Below, piece by piece: positions 3,199 to 33,229 of a stretch of DNA of 45,183 bases; within the stretch, counting starts at the first letter, position 1; each line of letters opens with the position of its first letter. Below the pieces are notes generated by a model. It was not told where the DNA came from and made no database searches. It saw nothing but the letters and a program-made list of their open reading frames with translations. A program made the position numbers and the translations under genes. This DNA comes from Deltaproteobacteria bacterium. Lineage in GTDB: Bacteria > Desulfobacterota > GWC2-55-46 > UBA9637. The stretch spans positions 1 to 45,183 of the forward strand of contig JACQEJ010000051.1 in NCBI GenBank assembly GCA_016200645.1. Reading direction: 5' to 3'.

Positions 3199-3942
3199 TC
3201 ATGTCCCTTGGTGAACCGAAGACTCACGGAAGCTGCACTTCATTCCCTCAATAAGCCTTAACAATTTCTCCACATTTTTCTCTATGGTATAGTTTTCTAC
3301 TGTTGTTCTCGCCCGTTTGCCTGCAGCCAGCCTTATCTCTTCATTCAGCAAGGGCTTAATCCTTTCAGCAAGCTCCACAGGATTTGCAGGGTCATTTACA
3401 ATCATGCCGTCTTTTCCGTCCGTGAGGATTTCGGAGACCCCGTTTATTCTTGATGTTATCACCGGCAGCTCGGCTGCCATAGCCTCAAGACAGGCATTGC
3501 TGAAAGGCTCGTAGATGGATGGCAAAACGAATATATCCGCAGCAACGTAGTAGCCTTTGACATCTTTTGCAGGGCCGATAAATTGCACATCACCTGCCAC
3601 GCCGCATCTGTCGGCAACGTTTTGATACTTTTTTATGTCTCCTTTTCCTACAACAACCAATTTGTAGGAAGGGCTTTGCCCGCCATTTTGCCTTTCTTTC
3701 TTTAAAATTCCCAGCGCCTCGATCAAAAACCGCAAGCCTTTTCTCTCAAAACCAGAGCCGACGAACAGAAGGACAATTTCATCCTGCATCTGAAGTTTTG
3801 CTCTATAGGCGATTCTCAGATTGTCCCTCTCATGAAGATTAAACGCCCTGAGATCAATTCCGTTATATATAACACAAATCTTTTCCTCAGGCAAACCGTA
3901 ATGCCTTATTATCTCCTCCTTGCCGCGCACGGAATTTGCCAC
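3199..3942 (-). CDS. GT4 glycosyltransferase, C-terminal fragment of a gene split by a frameshift
   Basis: Contains the GT-B C-terminal domain (FVLPSIYEPFSNACLEAMAAELPVITSRINGVSEIL, an EX7E-like region). The frame stays open upstream to about 4072 (…TSLNPLHLTILYLEKRLFQSKRLKFVV) with no start codon other than GTG at 3942. Confidence 0.8.
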   Translation of the reverse strand: MANSVRGKEEIIRHYGLPEEKICVIYNGIDLRAFNLHERDNLRIAYRAKLQMQDEIVLLFVGSGFERKGLRFLIEALGILKKERQNGGQSPSYKLVVVGKGDIKKYQNVADRCGVAGDVQFIGPAKDVKGYYVAADIFVLPSIYEPFSNACLEAMAAELPVITSRINGVSEILTDGKDGMIVNDPANPVELAERIKPLLNEEIRLAAGKRARTTVENYTIEKNVEKLLRLIEGMKCSFRESSVHQGT

Positions 3943-4009
3943 GACAAATTTTAATCTCTTGCTCTGAAAAAGCCTTTTTTCAAGATAAAGGATGGTTAAA
4001 TGTAACGGG

Positions 4010-4522
4010 TTAAGCGAGGTTATAATTTTTCTTATTGTTCTTTTGGCTTTTGACTTTTGACTTTTCTCTTTGTATCAGCCATTCTCTATGGCAGCCGTCG
4101 CCTGCCCGATAAATGTCCTGATACAATGTCCTTTCAAAACTTATCACCACATCAAGGTTTGCCTTTCTGACAGCAAAATAAGCATTTATGGCAAAAGATA
4201 ATATCCGTAAGAATGAGGGACCGAATGTTTTAATATTGTGAAATATAAGTTTTGACCCCTGCTTACTGCTTGCAGGGGCATGGTTTTGCCCCGAAAATAC
4301 CCCATCCCCACCCCAACCCTCCCCTTGAAGGGGAGGGAGTAAAATAGTCTCCTCTCCCTCAGGGAGAGGATTAAGGTGAGGGTGGGGTAAATTTTCTTCC
4401 CACTCCCTTGCAAATATATGGCATGTATGCCCCTTTGTAAGAAGCGCATCAATAAATCGGGAAAGAAAAACCTCCGCTCCGCCGTATGGCGTATACCGCA
4501 TCCTGACAAGGCCGATGTTCAA
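4010..4522 (-). CDS. GT4 glycosyltransferase, N-terminal fragment (same gene as 3199..3942)
   Basis: The N-terminus MNIGLVRMRYTPYGGAEVF and ...YRAGDGCHREWL are typical of WaaG-like GT4 enzymes. The fragment terminates just after a heptamer tract and carries a palindromic in-frame insert. Confidence 0.75.
   Translation of the reverse strand: MNIGLVRMRYTPYGGAEVFLSRFIDALLTKGHTCHIFAREWEENLPHPHLNPLPEGEETILLPPLQGEGWGGDGVFSGQNHAPASSKQGSKLIFHNIKTFGPSFLRILSFAINAYFAVRKANLDVVISFERTLYQDIYRAGDGCHREWLIQREKSKVKSQKNNKKNYNLA
4041..4068. repeat. Heptamer tract ttttggc ttttgac ttttgac ttttctc (4 units, 28 nt) at the GT4 frameshift point
   Basis: Read directly. On the minus strand it is GAGAAAA GTCAAAA GTCAAAA GCCAAAA. 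Deleting one 7-nt unit fuses the two GT4 fragments in frame (worked out by hand). Confidence 0.85.
4306..4387. repeat. Nested palindrome (outer stem plus two inner hairpins) inserted in frame in the GT4 N-terminal domain
   Basis: Outer stem CCCCACCC (4306-4313) / GGGTGGGG (4380-4387). Inner hairpins are CCCTCCCC-ttgaa-GGGGAGGG (4317-4337) and TCCTCTCCC-tca-GGGAGAGGA (4350-4370). It encodes ...HLNPLPEGEETILLPPLQGEGWGGDG..., which is absent from typical WaaG-like proteins. Confidence 0.7.
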
Positions 4523-6850: not shown

Positions 6851-7949
6851 CTTGAAAAACCTCCTCCACCGTAATGTCGGTGACGCACTCTCTGTTCCCA
6901 TAACTGCACGCATAGGGAGCTTTAAATGTATGAGAACAGGGAACACAGGGAAGATTCTTTTGAATGATGACAACCTTGCCGCCGGTTGGCCTCTGATCTG
7001 CCATATCAGAAGGACCTGCGATGTCAACAACAGGTATATTCAACGCGTCTGCCATGTAAATGACGCCGGTGTCAACGCCGATGAAAAGCAACAATCTCTG
7101 CATAAGCGCAGGGAGTTCGGCAAGCGTGAATTTGCCCGCCGCATCAATGACCGCATCTCTGCGCCGCATGATTTTCAGTATTTTATCAGAAACATCCCTG
7201 TCTTTTTCAGAGCCGATAAGCATTACGACTGCGCTGCGCTCCGCTATCAATCTATCCGCAAGGGCTGCCATATTCTCTGCGCCCCATTCCTTGAGCCTGT
7301 TGCCGCTGGTAACGGCAAGGCCCACCGTGGGGCTTGAGGCTTGGGGCTTGGGGCTTGGGGCTAATAATCTCTCAGTTTTTTCATTGGCGTCTGGTGATTG
7401 GAAAACCTCTTTTGAAATATCGTCGTCATCGATGCCGATGGCCTTGAGCATCGCCATATAGGTCTCTGCGACAAGCCTGCCCCGCCTATGCCTTTCAAGA
7501 TATGTAGAAAATATGGATGCCGTCATGTAGGTGATTCCCGCAAAATCAGGCATCACGGAAATTCTTACAGGAATAAGCCCCCAGAACATGGCAATAGTAA
7601 ATGGGACATTTGGGTTGAGCGATATTCCGATATCATATCTACCACTGTAAATAAGCCTCGCCAATTTCACCTTGCCGGCAAATCCTTTATAGAAGTTGCT
7701 TTCAAGAGGTATAATCTCATCCACATATGGATTATGCTCAAGGAGCTCTTTGGTAAGAGGACTTGCCATTACCGACAGACGGGCGTCAGGATATTTTTCC
7801 TTAACCGCCCTGAAACCATGGGTGGAGCAGATAAGATCGCCGATCTTGGCAGTCTGGATTATCAAAACTCGCCGCATCTCTCTTTTCCTGAAAAACAGAA
7901 AAAAGTAGAGGATCGGCGAAGCCAGATAGGTGAGCAACACATAGAACAC
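6828..7949 (-). CDS. GT9 family glycosyltransferase (heptosyltransferase-like)
   Basis: 373 aa. RRVLIIQTAKIGDLICSTHGFRAVKEKYPDARLSVM and a C-terminal Cys cluster CVPCSH...CSYGNRECV. GTG start at 7949; an alternative ATG at 7877 would remove a hydrophobic N-terminal extension. Confidence 0.8.
   Translation of the reverse strand: MFYVLLTYLASPILYFFLFFRKREMRRVLIIQTAKIGDLICSTHGFRAVKEKYPDARLSVMASPLTKELLEHNPYVDEIIPLESNFYKGFAGKVKLARLIYSGRYDIGISLNPNVPFTIAMFWGLIPVRISVMPDFAGITYMTASIFSTYLERHRRGRLVAETYMAMLKAIGIDDDDISKEVFQSPDANEKTERLLAPSPKPQASSPTVGLAVTSGNRLKEWGAENMAALADRLIAERSAVVMLIGSEKDRDVSDKILKIMRRRDAVIDAAGKFTLAELPALMQRLLLFIGVDTGVIYMADALNIPVVDIAGPSDMADQRPTGGKVVIIQKNLPCVPCSHTFKAPYACSYGNRECVTDITVEEVFQGVSKLLD
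7331..7362. repeat. Heptamer array ggcttga (ggcttgg)x3 ggct.. inside the GT9 gene
   Basis: Read directly. It encodes SPKPQASSP and the frame is preserved. Confidence 0.85.
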
Positions 7950-9167
7950 CTAACTTAACACCTCTTCAAAGACCTTGCTGACTCCGCTTATATACGCATC
8001 CATGGAAAATTTTTCCCGCGCCCGCGCTCTCCCTTTTTCACCCATCACATTCCTCAATTCGCTTGAGGCGATCAGTTTTAACAGGGCTTCAGTCAATGCC
8101 TGAGGATTTTTTGCCGGAACCAAAAAGCCGGTTTCGCCGTCAACAACAAGCTCTGACGGGCCGGTTACATCGCATGCAATAACAGGCTTTGCCATAAGCA
8201 TTGCCTCAAGTATAACCCTCGGCAAACCTTCCTGTTCGGAAGATAAAACAAATATGTCCATCGCATTGATATACGAAATCGCATCCGTCTGAAAACCGGT
8301 AAATATCACTTTATCCTGCAATCCCTTTTTCAAAACATCTTCCTGTAAACTTTTTCTTTCAGGCCCGTCGCCGACCACAATAATTTTGAATTTTGAATTT
8401 TGAATTTTGAATTTATTATTCAATTCTCCCACTGCCTCAAGCAAATCATTTATCCGTTTTCTTTTTATCAAGGAACCGACCGTGCCGATTACCATTTCAC
8501 CGTCTCCTATCCCCCATTGCTTTCTTATCTCTGAAACTGCCGTCACCGGGTTGACATTCGGATCAATGCCGTTGTAAACAACAGCGCATTTCCCCGCGTC
8601 AACCCCTTGTTTTACGAACATCTCCTGAACGCCTTGAGAAACACATATCATTTTGGTGAGCCAGTTATTTACCGCATCCACCTCAACCCTATTCAACTCC
8701 GCGCCAATGCGGCTGTGCTGGATGCAGGGGATATTTGCAATCCTTGCGGCCATGATGCCTTCAAGGTTTGACGAGGGTTGATTATTCATATACAGGAGTC
8801 CTATCTTTCGTTCTCTTGAAATTTCTGCTATCCGCGCTGCATTCGGTTTAATCCTGAAATGACAGTCAATCAAAAACACAAAATATTTCTTCAGTTTTTT
8901 ACCGGGGGAAAATATTATCCTTACCGACTCTTTTAATATTTTAGATACAACAGGCTGTTTTTTTTGTTCCAACAGCAGAAAATCTATTCCGAGTTTTTCA
9001 ATCTCCGTCTTTATGTCAGACTCATTACCCTTTTTATAATTATGATAAAACAGGGCAGTGAACTGATATTTGCTCCTATCAATTCTCTTCAACAACTCAA
9101 GGAGGCTGTTTGTCCCGCCGCCCCATTCCTTGCCAGTATCAAGAATAAGAATTCTCTTCGATGCCAT
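7950..9167 (-). CDS. GT4 family glycosyltransferase
   Basis: 405 aa. GGGTNSLLELL at the N-terminus and SEQEGLPRVILEAMLMAKPVIACDVTGPSELVVDGETGFLV form the GT-B EX7E region. Confidence 0.85.
   Translation of the reverse strand: MASKRILILDTGKEWGGGTNSLLELLKRIDRSKYQFTALFYHNYKKGNESDIKTEIEKLGIDFLLLEQKKQPVVSKILKESVRIIFSPGKKLKKYFVFLIDCHFRIKPNAARIAEISRERKIGLLYMNNQPSSNLEGIMAARIANIPCIQHSRIGAELNRVEVDAVNNWLTKMICVSQGVQEMFVKQGVDAGKCAVVYNGIDPNVNPVTAVSEIRKQWGIGDGEMVIGTVGSLIKRKRINDLLEAVGELNNKFKIQNSKFKIIVVGDGPERKSLQEDVLKKGLQDKVIFTGFQTDAISYINAMDIFVLSSEQEGLPRVILEAMLMAKPVIACDVTGPSELVVDGETGFLVPAKNPQALTEALLKLIASSELRNVMGEKGRARAREKFSMDAYISGVSKVFEEVLS
8382..8416. repeat. (AATTTTG)x4 plus a degenerate unit inside the GT4 gene
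   Basis: Perfect units at 8382-8409, then aatttat. It encodes NNKFKIQNSKFKII and the frame is preserved. Confidence 0.9.
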
Positions 9168-12753: not shown

Positions 12754-13555
<802 letters not shown>

Positions 13556-14654: not shown

Positions 14655-15890
14655 TTACCTTTTTAAATGCCTTTCTATTATTTCCATTACTTCATCAACC
14701 GTAATATCTTCCAGACATTTGCTTATCTTGCTTCCGTCGCAGCCGTCTTTGCCGCACGGGATGCACTCCCAATCCCGCTGAATAACCGTGTGCTTCCCAA
14801 ACGTCTGGATTCCATTTCTTTGTGCATATGGAGATTCTAACTTTGAACTTTGAACTTTGAACTTTGAACTGTAGTTATCCCACGGCCCCCAGTGAAATGC
14901 GCCTGACGGGCCGAAAAGCGCCACTACAGGGGTGTCAACAGCAGCAGCGATATGCATAGGCGCTGAATCCACTCCAAAAAAAAGCCTTGCCCTTTTTGAA
15001 ATTGCGCCGAGTTTTTTTAGGTCTATATTCTCGATAAAGGAAATGGGTTTATTTTTGGCAAGTTCAATAATCCTGTTTGCCTTATCCATCTCTCTTTTGT
15101 CAGGACTGCAAGTTATAATGACTTTTGCACGGCACTGTTCTTGAATACGGTCAATGACATCAGCCATGGCCTCATCTTTCCAGCATTTAAAAAGCCAGCG
15201 GGAGGTTGGATGGATATGGACGATAATATCACCCTCTTTGACGCCCTTTTCCTTCAAGGCAGCGCTCAGCCATTTCTCGTCGTCCTTTGAGATATAAAAG
15301 TCAATAGCTGCAGGCTGAAGGCTGAAGGCTGGTCGTAAGACCTCTTTATCAGGTCTTATGCCGGCATTGCTTAAAAGTTCAAGATTTTGAAGAACAGTAT
15401 GGCTGTCCCTATCAATCGAGAATCTATGGGTATATAAAAATTTCTTGCCGGCAAAACCTCCGGCTTGCTCACAACCTATACGATACCTTGCCCCGCTCAA
15501 AAATGAATACAATGCCGGCCTGTCACCGCCTGTTAAATCAATTGCCATATCAAAATGTCTCTCCCTTATTTTCTTTACGAAAGAAAGCTCATACATGATT
15601 CTATTTAAAAAAAATCGCTTGGAGTATAAATTTTTCTGACCCCTGACCCCTGACCCCTGACCCCGGTAGTTAAGCATAGACCTGTCCAGCGACATAATCT
15701 CATCAACACACGGATTGCCAAGAAGCGCATCCTCTGTTCCTGAATTTGCAAGCGCTGTTATGCAGGCAAAGGGGAAGGCATCTTTTAATATCCTTATGGC
15801 AGGGGTTGTAAGCAGCACATCGCCGATGTGGCGGAGTTTAATGACAAGGATTTTTCTTATATCTTTAAACTCACTTCTCACTTCTCGCAT
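14655..15890 (-). CDS. GT9 family glycosyltransferase (heptosyltransferase-like) carrying three heptamer arrays
   Basis: KILVIKLRHIGDVLLTTPAIRILKDAFP, VDSAPMHIAAAV and a C-terminal CIPCGKDGCDGSKISKC cluster. ATG at 15890 (MREVRSEF...) is preferred over the track start 16031, which lies deep inside the upstream GT2 gene. Confidence 0.8.
   Translation of the reverse strand: MREVRSEFKDIRKILVIKLRHIGDVLLTTPAIRILKDAFPFACITALANSGTEDALLGNPCVDEIMSLDRSMLNYRGQGSGVRGQKNLYSKRFFLNRIMYELSFVKKIRERHFDMAIDLTGGDRPALYSFLSGARYRIGCEQAGGFAGKKFLYTHRFSIDRDSHTVLQNLELLSNAGIRPDKEVLRPAFSLQPAAIDFYISKDDEKWLSAALKEKGVKEGDIIVHIHPTSRWLFKCWKDEAMADVIDRIQEQCRAKVIITCSPDKREMDKANRIIELAKNKPISFIENIDLKKLGAISKRARLFFGVDSAPMHIAAAVDTPVVALFGPSGAFHWGPWDNYSSKFKVQSSKLESPYAQRNGIQTFGKHTVIQRDWECIPCGKDGCDGSKISKCLEDITVDEVMEIIERHLKR
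14839..14873. repeat. (AACTTTG)x4 plus a degenerate unit inside the GT9 gene
   Basis: Perfect units at 14839-14866. It encodes SSKFKVQSSKLES. Confidence 0.9.
15313..15333. repeat. (GGCTGAA)x2 plus ggctggt inside the GT9 gene
   Basis: Read directly. It encodes part of AFSLQPAA. Confidence 0.7.
15637..15664. repeat. (TGACCCC)x4 inside the GT9 gene
   Basis: Four perfect units. It encodes RGQGSGVRGQ. The reverse complement GGGGTCA matches the motif that flanks the RAYT gene. Confidence 0.9.
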
Positions 15891-20927: not shown

Positions 20928-21968
20928 ATGCCATTGAGCGACACTCTGGGCCACGATAGGGAAATAGGGATTCTCAGGAAGGCTATTTCCAATAAGAGGA
21001 TAGCCCATTCATTCTTATTTGTTGGACCACATGGCATCGGCAAGCGGTTTACTGCGGTTTCGCTTGCAAAGGCGCTCAACTGTTCTGCCCTGAGCGATGA
21101 TTTTTGCGGGGAATGTCAAAATTGCAGGGATATAGATAATTCCTCCTATGGCGATGTTTTTATTATTGAGCCGAGAGAGCCTGAATCAAAAGGCGGGGAA
21201 GTAGACCATGAAACCGGCATAATAAAAATAGATGCTGTAAGAGATGTGCAGCAAAGGCTGTCTTACAGGGCTGTCAGGGGCGGCAAGAAGATATGCATAG
21301 TGGATGGCGCGGAAAAGATGAACAAGGAGGCTCAGAACGCCTTTCTCAAGACGCTTGAAGAACCGCCGCCCGATTCCGTTATAATATTGATCGTCAGTGA
21401 CGGGACTGTCCTTTTGCCAACCATAATCTCCCGGTGCCAAAGGATAAATTTCAGGCCGCTGCCGCGAAATATTATGGTCGGAATAGTCAGAAAAAAGATT
21501 GAGCTTACGCATAAAGAACGATTGGCTGTAAATGATGAGACTGCCGCGCTTCTGTCTTCTTTAAGCGGAGGGAGCGTTGGAAAGGCGCTGGGCTGGGATA
21601 TAGAATCAATGCTTGAACAAAGGAAAAAGATTGTAGAAATGCTGCCGCGGCTTTCTTTGACGGACATGGAAGGGCTTTTTAAGGCGGCGGAAGAGATATC
21701 TAAAGGCGATAGGCCTGTGGAATCTCTGGAGTTTTTAAAGATGTGGTATAGAGATATGGCGGTAGTAAAACAAGGCGGGGAGGATATGATTATAAACTCC
21801 GATATTCTGCCGGTTTTAAAGCAGCATGCCGGAGGTAAAACATTTGACCGGCTTGCGAACGGTTTCAAGCTCATCCATCAGGCCCAGATGGATATTATGC
21901 CGCCGCAATATGCAAATAAACAGTTGACTGTTGAAAATTTGTTGATGCAGTTAGCTTATAACAGGTAG
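20928..21968 (+). CDS. holB: DNA polymerase III delta-prime subunit
   Basis: 346 aa. RIAHSFLFVGPHGIGKRFTAVSLAKALNC, a Cys-rich zinc module, and NAFLKTLEEPP. Confidence 0.85.
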   Translation: MPLSDTLGHDREIGILRKAISNKRIAHSFLFVGPHGIGKRFTAVSLAKALNCSALSDDFCGECQNCRDIDNSSYGDVFIIEPREPESKGGEVDHETGIIKIDAVRDVQQRLSYRAVRGGKKICIVDGAEKMNKEAQNAFLKTLEEPPPDSVIILIVSDGTVLLPTIISRCQRINFRPLPRNIMVGIVRKKIELTHKERLAVNDETAALLSSLSGGSVGKALGWDIESMLEQRKKIVEMLPRLSLTDMEGLFKAAEEISKGDRPVESLEFLKMWYRDMAVVKQGGEDMIINSDILPVLKQHAGGKTFDRLANGFKLIHQAQMDIMPPQYANKQLTVENLLMQLAYNR

Positions 21969-22039
21969 CTGATAGCTCATGGCTCAGAGTTCATAGCTGA
22001 TAGTAAATACTATGAGCCATGAGCTATCAGCTATGAACT
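21967..22039. repeat. Palindromic array of AGCTSAT heptamers with two mutually exclusive perfect stems
   Basis: Stem A is 21967-21986 with 22013-22032 (20 bp perfect). Stem B is 21988-22003 with 22024-22039 (16 bp perfect). The element starts at the holB stop codon. Confidence 0.85.
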
Positions 22040-22067
22040 ATGAGCTAAACAACGGAGGTTTTACCCA

Positions 22068-24842: not shown

Positions 24843-24915
24843 AGGCAAGGGGTAATAGGCGATAGGCAATGGGTAAGAACCTATAGCCATAGCCTCTTGC
24901 CTATAGCCTATTTTT
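24843..24915 (+). terminator. Imperfect long hairpin built from AGGCNAT heptamers and their complement, followed by T5
   Basis: aggcaag (24843-24849) pairs with cttgcct (24896-24902). Internal ataggc/gcctat units pair as well. TTTTT at 24911-24915, directly after the lipoprotein stop. Confidence 0.45.
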
Positions 24916-25047: not shown

Positions 25048-27135
25048 ATGAAGAATAAATTCTTTACCCTAAAATACCTTTCTGTCATCCCCGAGCGCTT
25101 CCCAACAATAATCTTCATGGCTGCATCCCTCCTCTTTTTCCCTTTCACATGGGTTGCCAATGCTGAGCCTCAAAAGGATATAGAAAAAAGCGAGCTCCTC
25201 CTCTTTTTTGAGGAAAAGGACCTCATGGTAAAAGGCGCATCCCACATAGAGGAGCCCCTTACAGAGGCCCCTGCAGTGGTCAATATCATCACCCAGGAGG
25301 ATATAAAAATCCTTGGGGCAAGAAATCTCCTTGATGTGCTTTATACCATTCCAGGTTTTTTTGATATACAGGATATAAATGAGCATGTGGCGGCAGGCCG
25401 TGGCGTCTATGCCACATCTACCCATAAGTTTCTCCTCTTAAGAGATGGGCATAGATTAAATGACCCGCTTTTTGAAGATATCATGCCGGAAAATTCTATA
25501 AGCCTTGCAAGCATAAAAAGGATAGAGGTTATGCGGGGCCCAGGGGCAAGCCTCTACGGCAATGCAGCCCTCCTGGGCGTTATCAATATTGTTACCGTAG
25601 ATGAAAAGGAGCCATCAAGGGTATCTGTGGGCGCAGGAAATTTTGGTCAGGAAACCGTTGACCTGATATACAACACCCCCCTTTCTGGAAACAGGCAATT
25701 TCTCTTTTTCTCATCCTTTTATAATTCTGAAGGCGAGAGGATAACACTTGACAGCAGCAGGGATTTTTCAAAAAATGCAGTGTCAGGTGAGCAGGATATT
25801 GATAGAAGGCCGCTAAACTATGACATCGGCATAAAATACAAAGGTGAAGAAACCCTTCTTTCACTTTCAACAAGGCGGGCATCTTATGATACGCCCAGAG
25901 GAAATCTGGGTCAGATACTAACACAAAATGATACCCTTGTAGACCCACAGCAGGATCTTTACAACACACACCTTGATTTTCAGTATATGCCCAAGTGGAA
26001 TGACATAAAATTCAACCTCCGGCACTATCTTGATTACTCCAAGGTTATTACACCGCAGTATAGCGAGGTGTCCAGGAACGCCCTTCCCAATGGCAAGGCG
26101 TTTAACCTGGAACTGGAGGATATGAGGGGAGGCATAGAATACAGCGGCGCCATTGAGCATAGGAACGGAACCGCAATTGTCGGCCTTCAGGCAGAGGCAT
26201 TCAGGCTTCTGGATAGTAAAATAGAGACATCCTTTGATGACCAAACAACCCTGAGAACAAAACAGGGACTGCCTGAAGAGACCGAATGGCTCGGCGCCAT
26301 CTACATACAGGAAAAATATAATCTCATTCAGAATCTCATTTTAAATGGAGGCATAAGGTGGGATTACTATGAGGCCTTCGGCAACTCTATAAATCCGAGG
26401 ATTGCTATAGTCTATAATCCTGCCGGAAGGTTTTATGCAAAGGCTATCTATGCAAAGGCATTTCAGGCGCCCAGCTATTTTTACAGAAAAGAGAATCAAG
26501 GGCTTGGTTATGGGGCGACAACAAAACTTGAACCGGAAAAGATGGATACATACCAGCTGAGTCTTGAAAACTGGTTCAATGATAAGGGCTGGTTCAGGAT
26601 GACTTTTTTTTATAATGAACTCAAAGACCTTATAAGCAGGCCTGCCGGCGCATCTACCTATCAGAACTTTGGAAAGATGACAACAGAGGGGATTGAGACT
26701 GAGGCAAGGGTTGAAGTAAGTTCAGTAACCCTATTTGCAAACCACTCGTATATAAGACCGGTAAAGAGCGATACTGATGCCTCGCTCATCAGGGATGATG
26801 AGCTGATAAATTATCCGTCAAATATTATCAACGGAGGGATAGTGTGGAAATACAATGTCTATCTCTCAGGGAGTTTCTACGCAAGCTGGCATGACGACAT
26901 AAAATCGCCCATCGGGACATCGTCTACAGCATATAGATATGAGCCTGATAATGAAATCCATGAAGCAGCAATCTTTAACCTCGCCATAAATGCCCAGAAT
27001 TTTTATAAAGGTCTTGAGGCAAGCCTCAAGGTGCACAACCTCTTTGATGAAAGAGACTTAAGGGGCGGGACAGTGCTCATCCCATATCCTCAGGAGGGGA
27101 GAAATATCTTTTTTAATATCGGGTATAGGTTTTAA
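25048..27135 (+). CDS. TonB-dependent outer-membrane receptor
   Basis: 695 aa with a signal peptide. Plug-domain motifs (APAVVNIITQEDIKILGARNLLDVLYTIPG; IEVMRGPGASLYG) and a terminal aromatic residue (GYRF). Confidence 0.85.
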   Translation: MKNKFFTLKYLSVIPERFPTIIFMAASLLFFPFTWVANAEPQKDIEKSELLLFFEEKDLMVKGASHIEEPLTEAPAVVNIITQEDIKILGARNLLDVLYTIPGFFDIQDINEHVAAGRGVYATSTHKFLLLRDGHRLNDPLFEDIMPENSISLASIKRIEVMRGPGASLYGNAALLGVINIVTVDEKEPSRVSVGAGNFGQETVDLIYNTPLSGNRQFLFFSSFYNSEGERITLDSSRDFSKNAVSGEQDIDRRPLNYDIGIKYKGEETLLSLSTRRASYDTPRGNLGQILTQNDTLVDPQQDLYNTHLDFQYMPKWNDIKFNLRHYLDYSKVITPQYSEVSRNALPNGKAFNLELEDMRGGIEYSGAIEHRNGTAIVGLQAEAFRLLDSKIETSFDDQTTLRTKQGLPEETEWLGAIYIQEKYNLIQNLILNGGIRWDYYEAFGNSINPRIAIVYNPAGRFYAKAIYAKAFQAPSYFYRKENQGLGYGATTKLEPEKMDTYQLSLENWFNDKGWFRMTFFYNELKDLISRPAGASTYQNFGKMTTEGIETEARVEVSSVTLFANHSYIRPVKSDTDASLIRDDELINYPSNIINGGIVWKYNVYLSGSFYASWHDDIKSPIGTSSTAYRYEPDNEIHEAAIFNLAINAQNFYKGLEASLKVHNLFDERDLRGGTVLIPYPQEGRNIFFNIGYRF

Positions 27136-27141
27136 TGACCA

Positions 27142-28050
27142 ATGACTAGAACTTTTATCCCCATAACCATCGTCTTATTCTTCATCCCTTTTCCATCCTT
27201 TGCCGCTGATGTCGCAGCGATCAAGAGCATGGATATTATCCCATACGGTGAGGCGGTAAAGGGGTTTAAATCCGCTGTCAAGGCAGAGGTTAGCGAATAT
27301 ACGCTTGACGCGGAAGGTGACAGCGGGATAATTATAAAGATAAAAAATAAGAAGACAGAACTTGTATTCACCTTAGGCACAAGCGCATTGAATCTGGTAA
27401 AGGACGAACCCAAGGATACCCCGGTTATCTTTACCTTTGTTTTAAACCCGGATGCGGTAATTGGCAGGGGGAGAGGCAGAACCAATATCACAGGGATTGA
27501 CATGCATATCCCTCCGGAGGAGCAGTTCCGTATTTTTTTACATGTCATGCCAAAGGCAAAACGGGTCGGTGTTGTTTATGACCCTGCAAAGAATCAGGGC
27601 ACAATTGATGCGGCAAAAAATGCCGCTCAAAATCTCGGGATAACCCTGATAGCAAAGGCGGTAACATCCGGAAAAGAGGCAATAAATGCCATCTCTGATA
27701 TGGAGGGAAAGATTGATGTCCTGTGGATGGTTCCTGATACAACAGTAATCACAAAGGAATCTATAGAATATATGCTGCTCTTCTCCTTCAGAAACAGGAT
27801 CCCGCTCATCGGAATTTCCGATAAATATGTTAAAAGCGGCGCCCTTTTTGCCGTCTCCTTTGACAATGAGGATATGGGCAGACAGGCCGGCGAGATTGCC
27901 ATGAGGGTGCTGGAGGGAGAGGATATCAAATCCATGTCCATGCTTAAACCGCGAAGATTAAGATTATCCATCAATCTCAACACCGCGGAAAAAATCGGTT
28001 TGAATATCCCGGAGGATATAATCAGGAGAGCGGATTATGTCTATAAATAG
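27142..28050 (+). CDS. Periplasmic substrate-binding protein, ABC_sub_bind (PF04392)-like, without cognate permease or ATPase
   Basis: 302 aa with a signal peptide. KRVGVVYDPAKNQ...DVLWMVPDTTV...IPLIGISDKYVKSGALFAV...INLNTAEKIGLNIP matches my recollection of PF04392. Confidence 0.7.
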   Translation: MTRTFIPITIVLFFIPFPSFAADVAAIKSMDIIPYGEAVKGFKSAVKAEVSEYTLDAEGDSGIIIKIKNKKTELVFTLGTSALNLVKDEPKDTPVIFTFVLNPDAVIGRGRGRTNITGIDMHIPPEEQFRIFLHVMPKAKRVGVVYDPAKNQGTIDAAKNAAQNLGITLIAKAVTSGKEAINAISDMEGKIDVLWMVPDTTVITKESIEYMLLFSFRNRIPLIGISDKYVKSGALFAVSFDNEDMGRQAGEIAMRVLEGEDIKSMSMLKPRRLRLSINLNTAEKIGLNIPEDIIRRADYVYK

Positions 28051-28054
28051 ACAA

Positions 28055-28159
28055 GTAAACCCCCACACCTTGACCGCAGGGCATTATACCCTGCGGCAAG
28101 AAAAGAAGCAGCCCTGCGCCAAGAGCGCAGGGCATTCCCAACAAGGTGTGGGGGTAAAC
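28055..28159. mobile_element. MITE-like nested palindrome flanked by a GTAAAC direct repeat
   Basis: A 13-bp perfect outer stem, 28060-28072 with 28142-28154. Inner hairpins are CCGCAGGG-7 nt-CCCTGCGG (28074-28096) and GCCCTGCGC-5 nt-GCGCAGGGC (28111-28133). GTAAAC occurs at 28055-28060 and 28154-28159. Confidence 0.55.
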
Positions 28160-28180
28160 CGTGGAGAGGTTGGGGGCTTA

Positions 28181-28204
28181 CCCCCCCCCCCCCCCCCCCC
28201 CCCC
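28181..28204. repeat. Homopolymeric C24 tract
   Basis: Counted directly: 24 consecutive C residues lying between a GTG at 28161 and the histidine kinase frame. Confidence 0.95.
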
Positions 28205-28248
28205 ACAAAGGTTTCAGGGCAAGGGTTTTCTGGCTGGTTACCATCTTA

Positions 28249-30216
28249 GTGCTGGCAATGGCAATCCTTTTTACAGCGGTTGTCATATACCAGCAGGGCA
28301 GCCTTTTAAAGAAAGACCTTACGGACAAAGGGCTCTCTATTGCAAAAAATCTTGCGCATAACAGCGAGCTCGGGGTATTTACAGAAAACGCTAAATTTAT
28401 TGAGCCCATTGTAGAGTATTTTAATATCAAGGCAGAAGAGGATGTTGTCTATGCCGCTATTTACAACATAAAGGGAAAGATAATCTATGAGTATGTAAAA
28501 GGGGACAGGGGCAGACCTCGCAGCATGGATGAGATAAAAGAAAGGATTGATGCGGAAAATGGAACATTCTGGGAGAAGATAATCTTCAATAATAACACCA
28601 TCTATGAATTCTGGGCGCCTGTCATTGTGTCTGCTGCACTTAAGGGGGAGGAGATGGTTGTGGAGGGGAATAAAGGGGGAGGGGGCAGGCCCGTAGGTGT
28701 TGTTCAGTTAGGACTCTCGTTAAAGGGTATTGATGCCAGTTTGAGGGATATCATCTGGACAAGCATATCCATAACCCTCATCTTCCTTCCCGTTGGATTT
28801 ATACTTACCTATATTACGGCAAGAAGGATAGTGGAGCCAATCTCAAGGCTCAAAAAGGGCGTGGAGGCGATTGAACAGGGGGGAAAATACGAGCCGATAG
28901 AAATTAAATCTGAAGATGAGATAAGGCATCTGGCATTATCGTTTAACAGGATGGTGGATGCCCTCCAGAAAAAGGATACGGAGATTATGCAGCATATAAG
29001 AGAGCTTTCAGCCATAAACTCAGTTGCCTTTGCTGTGAACCAGTCCCTTGACTTAGGCATTACCATTCATCACGCCTTAAGAGTGGTAATAAAGCTGACA
29101 GGCATGGAGGCAGGCTGGGTCTATCTCTTATCAGAAGATGGGGGCCTGCTTAGGATTACAGAATATGAAGGGGTTGCTCAAGGGTTTATTAAAAAGATTG
29201 ATCTCCTGAAACACGGGGAAGGCATAGCAGGCATGGCGGTGATTTCAGGAGAGCCTATTGTTGAAGAAGACATCACAAATGATCCCAGAATCACAAGGGG
29301 CGCTATATGGGAAGCTGGGTTCAAGGCATTTGCCAGCATTCCATTGTGGTCAAAAGAAAAGACGCTGGGCGTATTGAATATAACATCCCATGCTGTCCAC
29401 CCTTTTAGTCAGGATGAAAGAGAGATGCTCTCATCCATCGGCAGCCAGATAGGAACAGCAATAGAAAACTCCATGCTCTATGAAAAGATTAAGAGCCAGA
29501 TTGAAGAGATAGAGAGGACTCAGGACAGACTCATCCACGCTGCCCGTTTGGCATCCCTCGGCGAACTTTCAGCAAATGTCGCGCATGAGGTGAATAACCC
29601 TTTGACAGGCATACTCACCCATACATCAATGCTCATGGACGATACACCTGACACAGACCCGAATAAGAAGAGATTGAAGATCATATACGATGAGACCATT
29701 CGCATAAAACACATCGTAAGAAACCTCCTTGATTTTGCAAAATACTCGGAGCCAAAAAAGGAAAATATATGTATACAGGATGTTATCAAGGAGACATTGG
29801 GTCTCATAGCGCATCTTGCAAAGGTCTCAAATGTGGAGATAGTGGAAAATTACCATGAGGATGGGCCGACAATGGTTTCCATTGATGTTGCGCAGATAAA
29901 ACAGGTCCTGCTGAACCTCTTTAATAACGCATTATACGCTATGCCAAACGGAGGGTTATTAAAGATAACGGTATTGAAGACCACAGATTGGGTGGAGAGC
30001 TGCATTGAGGATACCGGCTTAGGCATACCGCAGGAGATTATCCATAAGGTCTTTGACCCGTTTTTCACCACCAAGCCTTCAACAAAGGGGACCGGCCTCG
30101 GGTTATCAATAAGCCACGGAATAATAGAAAGGCATGACGGGAAAATAGAGGTAAAAAGTGAAATCGGAAAAGGGAGCATCTTCACGATAAGGCTGCCGCG
30201 GGCAAAAGATTCATAG
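28249..30216 (+). CDS. Sensor histidine kinase (TM, periplasmic domain, TM, HAMP, GAF, HisKA, HATPase_c)
   Basis: H-box LGELSANVAHEVNNPLT; N, G1 and G2 boxes (LFNNALYAM, DTGLGI, GTGLGLS). The frame is open upstream to 28051 and encodes KGFRARVFWLVTILV, the missing half of TM1. The start is therefore probably upstream via the C tract (see findings). Confidence 0.85.
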   Translation: MLAMAILFTAVVIYQQGSLLKKDLTDKGLSIAKNLAHNSELGVFTENAKFIEPIVEYFNIKAEEDVVYAAIYNIKGKIIYEYVKGDRGRPRSMDEIKERIDAENGTFWEKIIFNNNTIYEFWAPVIVSAALKGEEMVVEGNKGGGGRPVGVVQLGLSLKGIDASLRDIIWTSISITLIFLPVGFILTYITARRIVEPISRLKKGVEAIEQGGKYEPIEIKSEDEIRHLALSFNRMVDALQKKDTEIMQHIRELSAINSVAFAVNQSLDLGITIHHALRVVIKLTGMEAGWVYLLSEDGGLLRITEYEGVAQGFIKKIDLLKHGEGIAGMAVISGEPIVEEDITNDPRITRGAIWEAGFKAFASIPLWSKEKTLGVLNITSHAVHPFSQDEREMLSSIGSQIGTAIENSMLYEKIKSQIEEIERTQDRLIHAARLASLGELSANVAHEVNNPLTGILTHTSMLMDDTPDTDPNKKRLKIIYDETIRIKHIVRNLLDFAKYSEPKKENICIQDVIKETLGLIAHLAKVSNVEIVENYHEDGPTMVSIDVAQIKQVLLNLFNNALYAMPNGGLLKITVLKTTDWVESCIEDTGLGIPQEIIHKVFDPFFTTKPSTKGTGLGLSISHGIIERHDGKIEVKSEIGKGSIFTIRLPRAKDS

Positions 30217-30232
30217 AGATATCTAAACAATA

Positions 30233-30343
30233 AATTATAAAGTTATCAAGTTATCAAGTAGAAAGTTATAAAGTAGAACAGTTATAAAGTAGAACAGTTA
30301 GAAAGTTATCAAGTTATAAAGTAGAAAGTTACGACTTACGACT
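30233..30343. repeat. 8-nt periodic tandem array (about 12 AGTTATNA/AGTAGAAN units) followed by (TTACGAC)x2
   Basis: It includes a perfect 16-mer repeat agttataaagtagaac x2 (30264-30295) and fills the kinase-to-regulator intergenic gap up to 4 nt before the ATG. Confidence 0.85.
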
Positions 30344-30347
30344 CAAT

Positions 30348-31802
30348 ATGCCAAGAGAAAACATACTGATTGTAGATGACGAGCCTGTAATCCTCAATGT
30401 GGCCTCTGAGATACTACAAAAGGCTGATTACAGGATAACGACCGCAGGCGATGGATTGGAGGGGTATCATAAGGTCAAGGAGGGGTTATTTGACCTTATT
30501 ATTACTGATATAAAGATGCCGAAGATGAACGGCATGGACCTCATCCAGAAGATAAGGCAGGAGATCTCCACAGATATGCCGATCATTATCATGACAGGAC
30601 ACGGGACAATAGACATTGCCATTGAGTCCCTTAAGCACGGGACTCACGACTTTATTATGAAGCCGTTCACTTCCCATGATCTCAGGGAATCTGTAGAGGA
30701 TGCTATTAGAAAAAGCAATCTCATAAAGGAAAATATAAAACTCAAGGCGCTGCTCCCTATCTTTGAGGTAAACAAAAGACTTTTAAGCGAATTAAACATA
30801 GAAAGGCTTATGCAAAGCATTGCTGCAGAGGCAGCAAGGTATACCGGGGCGGAAAGGGTATCTCTTATGCTGATGGATAGACAAGATGGATGCCTTACCC
30901 TGAAGGCGTCGAGAGGTATGGAGATATATCCCGATAAACCCATAAAGATAAAACCCGGCGAAGGCATATCCGGTTGGGTTGCGGAAAAAATGGAGCCCCT
31001 TCTTCTCAATGAAAGCATAAAAGGCCCTTTAAAGGATATGATGATAAAAAACGAGATAAAGTCCGCCTTGTGCATGCCGATTATAGTAAAGGGGGAGATG
31101 CTCGGCGTGCTTAACCTCTCAAATGTGAACAATGCCAGAATATTTACACACTCGGACATGGAGACGATCTCTGTCCTGTGCGGACAGGCAGGCATTGCCA
31201 TAGAAAACGCCAGACTCTATGAGAAGATTGAAAACTCTTATATAGGGATAATAGAGACGCTTGCCAATGCCATAGAGGCAAGGGACCCGCGCATTGCCGG
31301 ACATGCGATGCGCATGGCGGACTACTCATGCTCCATTGCCGCAGAGATGGGCATATCGGAGGGCGAGATTGAGCTAATCAACAAGGCCGCGCTCCTCCAT
31401 GATATAGGAAAGATCGGCATACCCGACCGTATATTATTAAAACCTGAGAGTTTAACAGATGAGGAAGATGTGATTATGAAGAGGCATCCTGAAATCGGCG
31501 TGAAGATATTGGACCGGATAGATGGCTTCAAAGAGATAAAAAGGCTCATAATACACCATCATGAATTTTACAACGGCGAGGGATACCCGTCAGGCTTGAA
31601 GGGTGAAGAGATACCGGTCGGCTCAAGGATTATTGCAGTAGCCGATGCCTTTGAGGCAATGACCGCCACCACAAGGCCATATCGTGAATCGGTGAAGCCG
31701 ATAGACGCCGTGAATGAGATCAAAAGGATGAGCGGCATACAGTTTGATCCTCAGGTGATGGATGCCCTTGTAAAGGTACTGCGAGCCAAGGGGGCGATAT
31801 AA
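30348..31802 (+). CDS. Response regulator with REC, GAF and HD-GYP domains (putative c-di-GMP phosphodiesterase)
   Basis: 484 aa. The REC domain has DLIITDIKMP. The HD-GYP domain has LLHDIGKIGIPD and HHHEFYNGEGYPSG. Confidence 0.85.
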   Translation: MPRENILIVDDEPVILNVASEILQKADYRITTAGDGLEGYHKVKEGLFDLIITDIKMPKMNGMDLIQKIRQEISTDMPIIIMTGHGTIDIAIESLKHGTHDFIMKPFTSHDLRESVEDAIRKSNLIKENIKLKALLPIFEVNKRLLSELNIERLMQSIAAEAARYTGAERVSLMLMDRQDGCLTLKASRGMEIYPDKPIKIKPGEGISGWVAEKMEPLLLNESIKGPLKDMMIKNEIKSALCMPIIVKGEMLGVLNLSNVNNARIFTHSDMETISVLCGQAGIAIENARLYEKIENSYIGIIETLANAIEARDPRIAGHAMRMADYSCSIAAEMGISEGEIELINKAALLHDIGKIGIPDRILLKPESLTDEEDVIMKRHPEIGVKILDRIDGFKEIKRLIIHHHEFYNGEGYPSGLKGEEIPVGSRIIAVADAFEAMTATTRPYRESVKPIDAVNEIKRMSGIQFDPQVMDALVKVLRAKGAI

Positions 31803-31804
31803 CA

Positions 31805-33229
31805 TTGCCAAACCAAGCCAGACTCATAGACACCCATGCCCATCTTGATGACCCTAAATTCAAAGACGACATAGATGATGTAATAAAAAGGGCGCAGGAT
31901 GCGGGCATTGAAAATATCATAACCGTAGGCGCATGGCAGAAGGAAAAGGGGCTTCGCCATATTGTTGAGCTTGCGGATAGGTATGACTTTGTCTATGCCG
32001 CCATCGGCGTTCATCCGCATGATGTCAAAGATGCAGGAGAAGACGCCTTCAACGAAATCAAGGGATTTTCATCCCATGAAAAGGTTATTGCCATCGGCGA
32101 AACCGGCCTTGATTATCACTACGAATATTCTCCAAAAGATATTCAAAAGAAAGTATTTATAAAACACATCCGGCTTGCAAGGGAATTGAATCTTCCGCTT
32201 ACAATTCACAGCAGAGACGCGGAGGGCGATACTCTGGAGATACTTGTCGCTGAGGGCGTGCAAGATATTGGCGGCGTTCTGCATTGTTTTTCCGGCAGCT
32301 ATGACATGGCAAAAAGATGCCTTGATATGGGTTTGTATTTATCTTTTACCGGCGTTGTCACATTCCCCAAGGCGGCAAATGTGCATGAGGTTGTAAAAAG
32401 GATTCCCATTGAAAGGATGCTCATTGAGACAGACTGCCCCTATCTTGCGCCCGAGCCGCACAGGGGAAAGAGGAATGAGCCTGCCTTTGTTGTTGAGACA
32501 GCAAAGCGAATCGCGGAGATTAAAGGGCTTTCCTTTGATGATGCGGCAAGGATTACAACTTTAAATGCAAAAGAATTGTTTGCTATCGGAGAAAAAACAG
32601 AGGCGGCAAAAATAGCTTATCAAATCAGAAATTCCCTTTATCTCAATATCACCAACCGCTGCACAAACTACTGCACATTCTGCGCAAAGCATGTCCCCGC
32701 AGGCTTTAAGCGGGGATTCAAATCCTACACAGTCAAAGGTCACTACTTGCGGTTGAAAGAGGAGCCGGCCTTTCAGGATGTAATAAGGGCTGCGGGCGAC
32801 AGACCTGCTGAAAAATATAATGAGATTGTGTTCTGCGGATTTGGCGAACCGCTCATCCGGCTTGACCTTGTGAAAGAGGCCGGGCTTTTTCTCAAAAAAC
32901 AGGGATGCAAAATCAGGATAGACACGGACGGTCTTGCCAATCTTGTTCATGGAAGAAATATTTTGCCTGAACTGAAATTTGTTGATACTATATCCGTGAG
33001 CCTCAATGCCCCTGATTCAGAAACTTATCAAAGGCTTGTAAAGACGCCGTATGGCGATAAGGCATTTCCTGCGATAGTCTGGTTTTTGAAAGAGGCAAAG
33101 AAGTATATCCCGAAGGTCGTTGCCACCGTAGTCGCTGTGCCGGGGCTGGATATTGAGACATGCAGAAAACTGGCAGAGGATGAAATCGGCGTGGCATTCA
33201 GGGTGAGGGAGTATAATGAGGTTGGTTGA
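31805..33229 (+). CDS. TatD-family hydrolase fused to a TatD-associated radical SAM domain
   Basis: 474 aa with a TTG start. The N-terminal half has IDTHAHLDD...GETGLDYHY...HSRDA...HCFSG...ETDCPYLAP. The C-terminal half has NITNRCTNYCTFCAK (CX3CX2C). Confidence 0.8.
   Translation: MPNQARLIDTHAHLDDPKFKDDIDDVIKRAQDAGIENIITVGAWQKEKGLRHIVELADRYDFVYAAIGVHPHDVKDAGEDAFNEIKGFSSHEKVIAIGETGLDYHYEYSPKDIQKKVFIKHIRLARELNLPLTIHSRDAEGDTLEILVAEGVQDIGGVLHCFSGSYDMAKRCLDMGLYLSFTGVVTFPKAANVHEVVKRIPIERMLIETDCPYLAPEPHRGKRNEPAFVVETAKRIAEIKGLSFDDAARITTLNAKELFAIGEKTEAAKIAYQIRNSLYLNITNRCTNYCTFCAKHVPAGFKRGFKSYTVKGHYLRLKEEPAFQDVIRAAGDRPAEKYNEIVFCGFGEPLIRLDLVKEAGLFLKKQGCKIRIDTDGLANLVHGRNILPELKFVDTISVSLNAPDSETYQRLVKTPYGDKAFPAIVWFLKEAKKYIPKVVATVVAVPGLDIETCRKLAEDEIGVAFRVREYNEVG

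Follow-up and report, generated by a model that had tools for sequence, protein, structure and literature searches.

At the 5′ end of a sensor histidine kinase gene lies a run of exactly 24 cytosines (28181–28204, bounded by A28180 and A28205), so that no start codon is in frame with the kinase body, as a preliminary description of this DNA had proposed. The locus may be a genuine mutational switch that turns the kinase on and off, or the assembly may have miscounted the run by one base; the exact length of the run decides whether the kinase can be made. We give roughly even odds (probability about 0.5) to the reading that the C24 tract, located in the MITE-bearing tail codons of the kinase of a conserved gene cluster, is a slippage-prone frame switch. 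The 45,183-nt stretch of DNA analysed here (the window) and related loci establish the anatomy, the frames, the conserved N-terminus and the MITE family, whereas length heterogeneity in vivo, the use of either start codon and any adaptive value are inferred.

A kinase out of frame as assembled, in a conserved cluster

The kinase is the third of four genes, whose order (TonB receptor, ABC_sub_bind protein, kinase, REC-GAF-HD-GYP regulator) is conserved in orthologous loci:

25048–27135, + strand: TonB-dependent receptor gene, first of the conserved four-gene cluster (Pfam Plug and TonB_dep_Rec_b-barrel; order as in orthologous locus L042)
27142–28050, + strand: periplasmic ABC_sub_bind protein gene (Pfam PF04392, E 6.7e-38)
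28204–30216, + strand: sensor histidine kinase body (HKGFRARVFW, TM1, sCache_4-like periplasmic domain, HAMP, GAF, HisKA, HATPase_c; Pfam)
30348–31802, + strand: cognate response regulator, REC-GAF-HD_5 (Pfam; kept downstream of the kinase in L039–L043)

From its domains, the regulator is likely to be of the HD-GYP type with a c-di-GMP phosphodiesterase output. The kinase body (~670 codons) is intact, without internal stops or frameshifts, and this, with the intact regulator downstream, implies that the event at the tract is recent or that the gene is still in use. The preliminary description had the tract toggling the whole TonB-receptor/c-di-GMP pathway; this applies to the kinase, but the coding sequences of the TonB receptor and the ABC_sub_bind protein upstream are untouched.

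The kinase frame is open from 28051, reading ...PPPPPPPHKGFRARVFWLVTILVLAMAILF, and contains no ATG, GTG or TTG before GTG 28249, in agreement with the preliminary description. It is closed upstream by TAG 28048–28050, which is the native stop of the ABC_sub_bind gene, whose C-terminus (...RADYVYK, then stop) aligns with that of an ortholog (...RADKKYR, then stop). At C24 the ABC_sub_bind and kinase genes share one frame; an ABC_sub_bind-kinase fusion made by read-through of TAG 28048 was considered and rejected, since its topology would be wrong (a periplasmic binding protein followed by a cytoplasm-out TM1) and the TAG is native in orthologs.

A run of 24 nt had been called extreme for this DNA, and the counts bear this out: the window contains 15 overlapping C10 matches, all within the C24 tract, against 0.11 expected from shuffles. 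The tract is the only run in the 45-kb window to reach the lengths taken as long (8 nt or more for G/C, 11 nt or more for A/T), and over the 274 kb of related loci that were fetched the longest other run measures 11. The tract thus lies within a coding region, among the N-terminal tail codons as previously placed, and is far longer than chance would give, as in homopolymeric contingency loci. It forms the 3′ end of a lineage-specific, G-rich insertion of ~44 nt, and ends one codon short of the conserved KGFRARVFW, which runs into TM1. None of the kinase orthologs compared has such a tract. The features around it are:

28024–28028, + strand: Shine-Dalgarno sequence AGGAG, with an 8-nt spacer to ATG 28037, read off the sequence
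28037–28059, + strand: probable native kinase start (ATG 28037) with its first codons (MSINRQV-N), sharing 14 nt with the ABC_sub_bind gene up to its stop
28056–28059, no strand: TAAA target-site duplication, left copy, flanking the MITE
28060–28154, no strand: palindromic MITE, 95 nt, with 13–14-bp perfect terminal inverted repeats CCCCCACACCTTG / CAAGGTGTGGGGG
28155–28158, no strand: TAAA target-site duplication, right copy, flanking the MITE
28159–28180, + strand: G-rich segment CCGTGGAGAGGTTGGGGGCTTA, which holds GTG 28161 and from about 28163 is without ortholog counterpart
28181–28204, + strand: C24 homopolymer, Pro7–8 in every frame, whose length modulo 3 picks the in-frame upstream start, if any
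28247–28251, + strand: TAGTG, in which the stop of a 70-codon ORF overlaps GTG 28249

Tract lengths from C20 to C28 were simulated. ATG 28037, a start overlooked in the preliminary description, joins the kinase at C22, C25 and C28, giving 725–727 aa. GTG 28161, whose ORF reads VERLGAYPPPPPPPP (the MERLGAY-(Pro)n correctly described before) in the frame adjacent to that of the kinase, joins HKGFRARVFW at C20, C23 and C26, giving 683–685 aa; the earlier hand translation at C23 and C26 is confirmed and C20 is added. Those two lengths, proposed as the ON states, hold for GTG 28161, whereas with ATG 28037 the ON states are C22 and C25. At C21, C24 and C27 neither start joins it. Of the three length classes (modulo 3), two give a full-length kinase ORF, and in silico a change of length over C20–C28 toggles the ORF in and out of frame, as in a contingency locus.

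As assembled, at C24, there is no full-length kinase ORF, and ATG 28037 opens a 70-codon ORF with its stop at TAG 28247–28249. At C24 the TAGTG overlap might allow termination-reinitiation, and with it a kinase shortened at its N-terminus, a putative function.

Kinase start and the inserted MITE

The preliminary description took GTG 28161 as the probable start. The native start is probably ATG 28037 instead, as judged from the sequence, because of the AGGAG with its 8-nt spacer and the ortholog-like position beside the ABC_sub_bind stop. Orthologous kinases start 4–18 nt after that stop, reading M(L)AKVRQNRIFKGFRARVFW or MLKKIFHGFRARVFW, and MSINRQVNR of this kinase parallels MAKVRQNRIF-KGF in an ortholog. 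About 30 full-length orthologs (41–60% identity) were found, all of which contain [HK]GFRARVFW with 6–18 residues before it; those ~60% identical all begin M-x(6-18)-[HK]GFRARVFW. The gap from RQNR to KGF is only about two codons (I-F) in orthologs, and here ATG 28037 and KGFRARVFW are separated by two lineage-specific insertions, the MITE and the ~44-nt G-rich/C24 segment.

The same comparison upholds the view that KGFRARVFWLV is really coding. A start at GTG 28249 or ATG 28258 would cut the charged tail and half of TM1, lowering the best 19-residue Kyte-Doolittle window from 2.81 to 1.71, so that the truncation of TM1 foreseen for GTG 28249 is borne out; orthologs starting at the position equivalent to 28249, which the preliminary description had named as evidence against itself, were looked for and not found. 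The current gene call is wrong: the annotated 652-aa product begins inside TM1. The G-rich, Shine-Dalgarno-like stretch noted before GTG 28161 turns out to be the right terminal inverted repeat of the MITE, which by prediction is sequestered in a stem of 14 bp. A promoter scan for sigma-70-like sequences between 28050 and 28250 on the + strand returned none.

The MITE, a mobile palindrome that had also been overlooked along with the ownership of the 28048–28050 stop, contains two internal hairpins (28074–28096 and 28111–28133), which are terminator-like on the − strand only, and has a fold z-score of −6. Searches of the structured region against Rfam and for tRNA/tmRNA gave nothing meaningful. 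Members of the family occur at 10 GTDB MAG loci and 26 metagenome loci; about 25 other non-redundant copies lie at unrelated sites in GTDB MAGs and groundwater metagenomes, and the 45-kb window has one copy. Length variants run from 35 to 165 nt, and near-identical ends are present in MAGs of Parcubacteria, Saccharibacteria, Taylorbacteria, Nitrospinota and ‘Deltaproteobacteria’. Most copies are flanked by TAAA on both sides, or by TTTA/TTTA when the asymmetric interior is reversed; in those copies the flanks are thus direct repeats outside the inverted repeat, and the duplication is independent of the orientation of the element. Exceptions are L007 (GCAA/TAAA), L018 (TTTA/TTAA) and L032 (flanks inverted, not direct). 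The element is non-coding and shorter than ~300 bp, with terminal inverted repeats, a target duplication and multiple dispersed copies, as is characteristic of MITEs. No autonomous IS with matching ends was seen in the fetched loci, of which L010 has a solo left end only; neither the MITE end nor the left flank of the tract was found in IMG/VR viral contigs, and a literature search with the termini gave only chance human matches.

With its target duplication the MITE adds 99 nt, keeps the frame and is open in the frame of ATG 28037. In L006, 48 nt of the MITE family lie inside a HATPase_c domain, where a single Pfam stretch runs through the insert over profile positions 1–110, and the copies in L019 and L018 are also in frame. 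As in Rickettsia palindromic elements (RPEs), these are in-frame ORF insertions with intact host domains. Toleration of the family in an intact HATPase_c and in other ORFs makes read-through from ATG 28037 credible.

The left junction of the MITE was assembled independently in two SRA runs (Logan), whose ids were in no paper found; Logan contigs L001 and L002 encode an ABC_sub_bind protein identical to that of the window. In these assemblies, which are of the same organism, the contigs end 100 nt upstream of the tract, inside the multi-copy MITE. A possible origin of the G-rich/C24 segment as a second, degenerate MITE end was also tried, as TTA-C5-ACA is similar by eye, but gained no support, an ungapped PWM scan with both ends having missed it.

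Frame switch, miscount or relic

We propose that the MITE entered a TAAA site within the codons of the short cytoplasmic N-terminal tail, adding its 99 nt in frame, and that a second insertion, the ~44-nt G-rich segment ending in uninterrupted C24, came into the same codons. With polyproline encoded in all three frames, tract length modulo 3 would set the frame relation. At 3n+1 (C22, C25) a 725–726-aa kinase with a 48-residue tail insertion would be made from the native ATG; at 3n+2 (C23, C26) a 684–685-aa kinase would be made only if GTG 28161 is usable as a start; and at 3n (C24, as assembled) there would be no full-length product, only a peptide of 70 aa and, at most, a kinase with a truncated TM1. 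Replication slippage should be very frequent on a perfect 24-nt homopolymer, so if the tract is real the population would have to be a mixture of cells ON and OFF for the kinase, in effect a phase switch. The absence of the tract from orthologs, and of poly-C beside other MITE copies in the fetched loci, suggests a recent accident, not a selected device. It was also weighed against a switch that the C24 tract is the sole long homopolymer in 45 kb, and that the host is an uncultured groundwater bacterium.

The window has another gene split at a repeat. A GT4 glycosyltransferase gene, which lies in an LPS cluster, is interrupted exactly at a heptamer array (26 nt, 4040–4065), and removal of one 7-nt unit restores a 440-codon open frame. 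Repeat-associated frameshifts thus recur in the window; a search for other assemblies in which to compare heptamer copy number returned no records. It is doubtful, in our judgement, that the kinase and GT4 are among several repeat contingency loci, the kinase being a three-state translational switch with a long-tailed form at 3n+1 (ATG 28037), a short-tailed form at 3n+2 (GTG 28161, with a MITE-donated Shine-Dalgarno sequence) and an OFF state at 3n. If so, contingency-locus biology would reach well outside host-associated pathogens.

The assembled length may instead be off by one, the true tract being C25 (or C22, C23 or C26) and the kinase intact and constitutively made from ATG 28037 or GTG 28161; we regard this as possible, though not as the likelier account. 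Homopolymers of 24 nt are the commonest miscount sites in short-read assemblies, and above about 15 nt both Illumina reads and library PCR get homopolymer lengths wrong. One added C brings back a 726-aa protein whose start has a canonical Shine-Dalgarno sequence, two of three length classes are full-length, and the 2-kb ORF downstream has no lesion and scores strongly for its domains. Even with an in-frame modal length, however, a tract this long would throw out-of-frame variants at a high rate, so that this alternative changes the assembled state and leaves the mechanism in place; and the GT4 frameshift, lying at a heptamer array of 26 nt, is probably no assembly error, which argues that real frameshifted genes occur here. 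Among the collections searched there were no other assemblies of the kinase 5′ region and no alternative alleles: the right flank of the tract had 0 matches in JGI metagenomes, look-ups by exact product found neither the kinase (at 655 or 652 aa) nor the regulator nor the 70-aa ORF, and the window's own protein was the only one at ≥90% identity. A frame switch that mutates at a high rate, of a kind already known (as in bvgS, below), is plausible but unproven, and the assembled sequence does not tell it apart from an off-by-one length; the site calls for a read-level check before any biological claim.

Recent pseudogenisation, in which MITE and C-tract are accidents that inactivated the kinase, the tract is functionless and further lesions have yet to accrue, seems unlikely to us. 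Both insertions are lineage-specific, a full-length ORF is missing as assembled, and the other repeat insertions and split glycosyltransferase in the window suggest tolerance of repeat-driven damage. Yet neither stops nor frameshifts are present in the 670-codon body, its cognate regulator is likewise intact, and the MITE, open in the native frame, belongs to a family translated in frame in other genes; moreover, an old neutral tract should have decayed by point mutation, and this one is uninterrupted.

Less probable still is recoding in place of DNA switching, whereby RNA-polymerase slippage, or ribosomal +1/−1 slippage of tRNA-Pro on CCC-C at a polyproline stall, would give some full-length kinase from C24. 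The tract is all C in every frame, so any realignment still pairs, and the ORFs from ATG 28037 (which needs −1) and GTG 28161 (which needs +1) both run into it. Slippage on homopolymers, and frameshifted genes rescued in this way, have been described (PMC1088944, PMC5009743), but in bacteria transcriptional slippage is documented mainly on A/T runs (PMC1088944), and no stimulatory element was identified at the tract. Such slippage, transcriptional or ribosomal, could also blur the ON/OFF distinction of a frame switch (PMC1088944, PMC5009743).

That the tract is wholly an artefact, for example of dark-cycle poly-G reads bridging two contig ends, is very improbable: poly-G/C is typical of two-colour chemistry and the same-organism Logan assemblies break 100 nt upstream, but those breaks fall within the multi-copy MITE and not at the tract, gene order and frame across the tract match orthologs (native N-terminus to the left, KGFRARVFW one codon to the right), and 18 nt of extra non-homopolymer sequence precede the tract, with adapter sequence absent.

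Comparison with known switches and palindromic elements

Homopolymers in 5′-coding positions form the contingency loci of Campylobacter, Neisseria, Haemophilus and Helicobacter (C. jejuni flgS/flgR among them); in these host-adapted pathogens the tracts are typically 8–17 nt, many per genome and mostly in surface-structure genes. Like them, the present locus carries its G/C tract close to the start of the ORF, which is ON or OFF by length modulo 3; in contrast, it is a single, longer tract in a signalling gene of an environmental bacterium. To our knowledge contingency loci are hardly documented in uncultured subsurface bacteria. Should the tract prove real and variable, a TonB-receptor-linked sensor, and through it an HD-GYP regulator, would be under stochastic ON/OFF control in such an organism. 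Homopolymeric contingency loci have been reviewed (e.g. PMC8355987, PMC3930126).

A close parallel is bvgS of Bordetella pertussis, where poly-C frameshift phase variation (C6/C7) turns off a whole regulon (PMC1891110). In both loci a two-component sensor kinase gene has a cytosine homopolymer among its codons, in which one C shifts the frame. In bvgS, however, the tract is 6–7 nt and gene-internal, and switching was shown by experiment; here it is 24 nt and lies in N-terminal tail codons beside a MITE, with two possible starts upstream.

Genes rescued by slippage (IS elements, endosymbiont poly-A; PMC1088944, PMC5009743) similarly have a long homopolymer at a frame junction, from which a full-length product is possible without a change in DNA, but their runs are A/T and about 9–12 nt, as opposed to C24. 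The 95-nt element resembles the RPEs (PMC10969869) in being small, palindromic, ORF-less, multi-copy and in frame in genes with intact domains, and differs from them in its sequence, its TAAA duplication, its 35–165-nt variants and its occurrence in very different phyla. The start of this kinase gene has been reshaped by two kinds of selfish or repetitive DNA, a cross-phylum MITE translated in frame, if ATG 28037 is the native start, and a runaway homopolymer.

Reading frame and start codon of the kinase

The sensor kinase belongs to a four-gene group whose order is identical in the orthologous loci L039-L043. By its carA relatives, the organism falls among the groundwater MAGs labelled 'Deltaproteobacteria bacterium' (e.g. 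GWC2_42_11, RIFCSPLOWO2_12).

Genes of the kinase locus (Pfam)
25048-27135, TonB-dependent receptor
27142-28050, ABC_sub_bind periplasmic protein
to 30216, sensor kinase (sCache_4-like, HAMP, GAF, HisKA, HATPase_c)
30348-31802, REC-GAF-HD_5 (HD-GYP-type) regulator

The kinase-to-regulator spacer measures 131 nt, versus 12-95 nt in L039-L043, and includes a 102-nt AT-rich degenerate tandem repeat (30230-30331; periods 8/16/31, unit ~TTATAAAGTAGAAAG). At 31805-33229, one ORF of 474 codons that starts with TTG encodes TatD_DNase (residues 8-259) and Radical_SAM (280-458) domains; either this is an uncommon fusion or the ORF list has joined two genes.

Direct reading of the window confirmed the reported run of exactly 24 consecutive cytosines at 28181-28204 (C24 tract); a C10 probe gave 15 overlapping matches, all within it, against 0.11 expected from shuffles. 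Confined to this lineage, the tract has no counterpart elsewhere in the window, where all remaining G/C runs are shorter than 8 nt and all A/T runs shorter than 11 nt; across the 274 kb of related loci that were fetched, other homopolymers reach 11 nt at most. In agreement with the preliminary description, three-frame translation shows the kinase frame to be open from 28051, reading ...TPPPPPPPHKGFRARVFWLVTILVLAMAILF, with GTG 28249 as its first canonical start, while GTG 28161 reads through the tract in the adjacent frame (VERLGAYP8). The kinase is otherwise intact downstream of the tract.

The database gene call (P0001, 652 aa) starts at ATG 28258, inside TM1; with 28249 as the start, the basic tail is lost and the highest-scoring 19-residue hydropathy window drops from 2.81 to 1.71. 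Because ~30 full-length orthologs (41-60% identity) begin M-x(6-18)-[HKS]GF[RFLM]A[RQ]VFW followed by TM1, KGFRARVFWLV is, by sequence comparison, conserved coding sequence, bearing out the earlier view that this segment belongs to the complete sensor. In the orthologous loci the kinase starts 4-18 nt past the ABC_sub_bind stop, with a Shine-Dalgarno sequence upstream. On alignment, the equivalent window codon is ATG 28037, which has AGGAG 8 nt 5′ of it (28024-28028) and overlaps the ABC_sub_bind stop (TAG 28048-50), itself aligned with the orthologous stop (...RADYVYK* in the window versus ...RADKKYR*). ATG 28037 reads MSINRQVN-R, paralleled by MAKVRQNRIF-KGF in the orthologous kinase P0002 and locus L039, with AGA-CAA (R-Q) common to both at the nucleotide level.

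GTG 28161, favoured previously, is the weaker start candidate, since the 'G-rich SD-like stretch' before it is the right inverted repeat of a palindromic element (MITE), paired in its 14-bp terminal stem in the minimum-free-energy fold. The earlier interpretation thus stands in its frame logic and conserved N-terminus; it chose the wrong start and overlooked the MITE.

A palindromic element between start codon and kinase

The MITE (28060-28154, 95 nt) lies between ATG 28037 and KGFRARVFW. It has perfect terminal inverted repeats of 13-14 bp (CCCCCACACCTTG / CAAGGTGTGGGGG), two internal hairpins, both built on the motif CGCAGGGC, and TAAA on either side; element and duplication together add 99 nt, open in the ATG 28037 frame. 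Its fold z-score is ~-6 on both strands, and Rfam and tRNA searches of the region found no family or tRNA. Arm mutations in copies L008 and L032 are uncompensated, which speaks for a DNA-level element and against a conserved RNA.

Two independent k=31 Logan assemblies hold the gene-MITE junction, and both stop at window position 28082, in the first hairpin, as would be expected if the multi-copy repeat branches the assembly graph there.

Logan contigs holding the junction
25474-28082, L001 (SRR12113410), 5 SNPs in 2.6 kb
26769-28082, L002 (SRR12113411), identical to the window

Given the 5 SNPs of L001, the MITE is present at the kinase site in two strains or more.

A 20-mer of the MITE left end occurs at 10 loci in GTDB MAGs and in 26 metagenome contigs, with no match among IMG/VR contigs.

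GTDB MAGs with the left-end 20-mer
Parcubacteria Greene0416_79, 4 contigs
Nitrospinota NC_groundwater_1031, 2 contigs
Deltaproteobacteria GWF2_42_12
Taylorbacteria (two), Saccharibacteria (one)

About 25 non-redundant copies (35-165 nt) have common ends, their length variants arising from internal deletions between repeated GCAGGGCATT and from nested insertions; the closest to the window MITE, L034, lies on a contig from Hainich groundwater and is nearly identical to it. Most copies are flanked by TAAA/TAAA, or by TTTA/TTTA where the asymmetric interior is inverted, with a few exceptions (L007, L018, L032); TAAA is therefore a target-site duplication and not part of the inverted repeat. The 48-nt copy in L006 lies in frame within HATPase_c, the Pfam match remaining one stretch across the insert, and copies in L018 and L019 are likewise in frame within ORFs, resembling the in-frame intragenic insertion of Rickettsia palindromic elements (PMC10969869). 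No partner transposase was found in the fetched loci, and no literature match for the MITE ends.

Near-identical ends recur in groundwater and sediment MAGs of very different phyla (Parcubacteria, Taylorbacteria, Saccharibacteria, Nitrospinota, 'Deltaproteobacteria'), and a cross-phylum MITE beside the C24 tract is of some interest on its own account. The Parcubacteria copy L005 has a second small palindrome, TCCCCACACTAAACATTCGTTTGGTGTGGGGA, nested inside it, also present in L003, with arms resembling the MITE ends. L029 (JDSH01000009.1) matches the 20-mer, lacks the right MITE end and is probably a chance or partial match; within 7.5 kb it has 13 runs of G or C that are exactly 8 long, suggestive of a platform artefact or of a GC-rich genome.

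Directly after the window MITE, 28159-28206 reads CCGTGGAGAGGTTGGGGGCTTA-C24-AC. Orthologs have only ~2 codons between the CGT-equivalent (Arg, matching RQNR) and KGF, so ~44 nt are extra in the window. Comparison with the MITE ends gave no support for a MITE origin of this segment, and no homopolymer adjoins the other copies examined.

Heptanucleotide arrays in the window

The window, many of whose genes are LPS or glycosyltransferase genes, is rich in short heptanucleotide arrays, both intergenic and intragenic. At least 12 are present, each built on a unit of its own that is repeated 3.6-6 times; roughly half match perfectly (100%), the others at 74-94%. Those within long ORFs lie in GT9, GT4 and GT2 glycosyltransferases, a polysaccharide deacetylase and carA.

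Heptanucleotide arrays and the split GT4 gene
627-652, 4040-4065, 7328-7362, 8382-8414, 13221-13251, 14839-14870, arrays
15307-15331, 15636-15664, 21966-22047, 24880-24911, 37248-37291, 41733-41764, arrays
3199-4522, - strand, split GT4 glycosyltransferase in an LPS-type cluster
4010-4522, - strand, GT4 N-terminal ORF (Glyco_transf_4)
3199-3942, - strand, GT4 C-terminal ORF (Glycos_transf_1)

The GT4 split falls exactly at array 4040-4065, so repeat-associated frameshifts are not unique to the kinase; deletion of one 7-nt unit yields a 440-codon open frame, making this gene a candidate for a second repeat-mediated OFF gene, or a pseudogene. The carA array encodes 10 residues in a linker and is common to relatives at 75-90% identity; the majority of these arrays are accordingly stable insertions that are translated. 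Heptanucleotide repeats of a similar kind within genes are reported in Geobacter metallireducens (PMC2700814).

Tract length and a candidate phase switch

Tract length modulo 3 sets the in-frame start. In an in-silico length series (C20-C28), C22/25/28 (3n+1) place the probable native ATG 28037 in frame with the kinase (725-727 aa), and C20/23/26 (3n+2) fuse the MITE-adjacent GTG 28161 to it (683-685 aa), as described previously for C23 and C26. At 3n lengths alone, among them the assembled C24, no upstream start is in frame with the kinase. With C24, the ORF from ATG 28037 comprises 70 codons and stops at TAG 28247-49, overlapping GTG 28249 (TAGTG), where termination-reinitiation could yield a truncated kinase.

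An uninterrupted homopolymer of 24 nt is expected to change length at high frequency by slipped-strand mispairing. From this general knowledge we infer such variation for the C24 tract, which would give a population mixed ON/OFF, with the kinase in frame with an upstream start or not. Equally, the assembled tract length may be off by one; metagenome contigs, protein look-ups and related proteins yielded no alternative tract alleles. RNA-polymerase or ribosome slippage on the C run may also leak full-length kinase at any length (PMC1088944, PMC5009743). The phase switch is a candidate reading of the tract, as yet unproven.

Frameshift switching of a sensor kinase by a homopolymer is of a known kind, and the setting is new. 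The mechanism proposed here would work like the bvgS C6/C7 switch (PMC1891110), although the window tract is far longer and is sited in the kinase N-terminal tail.
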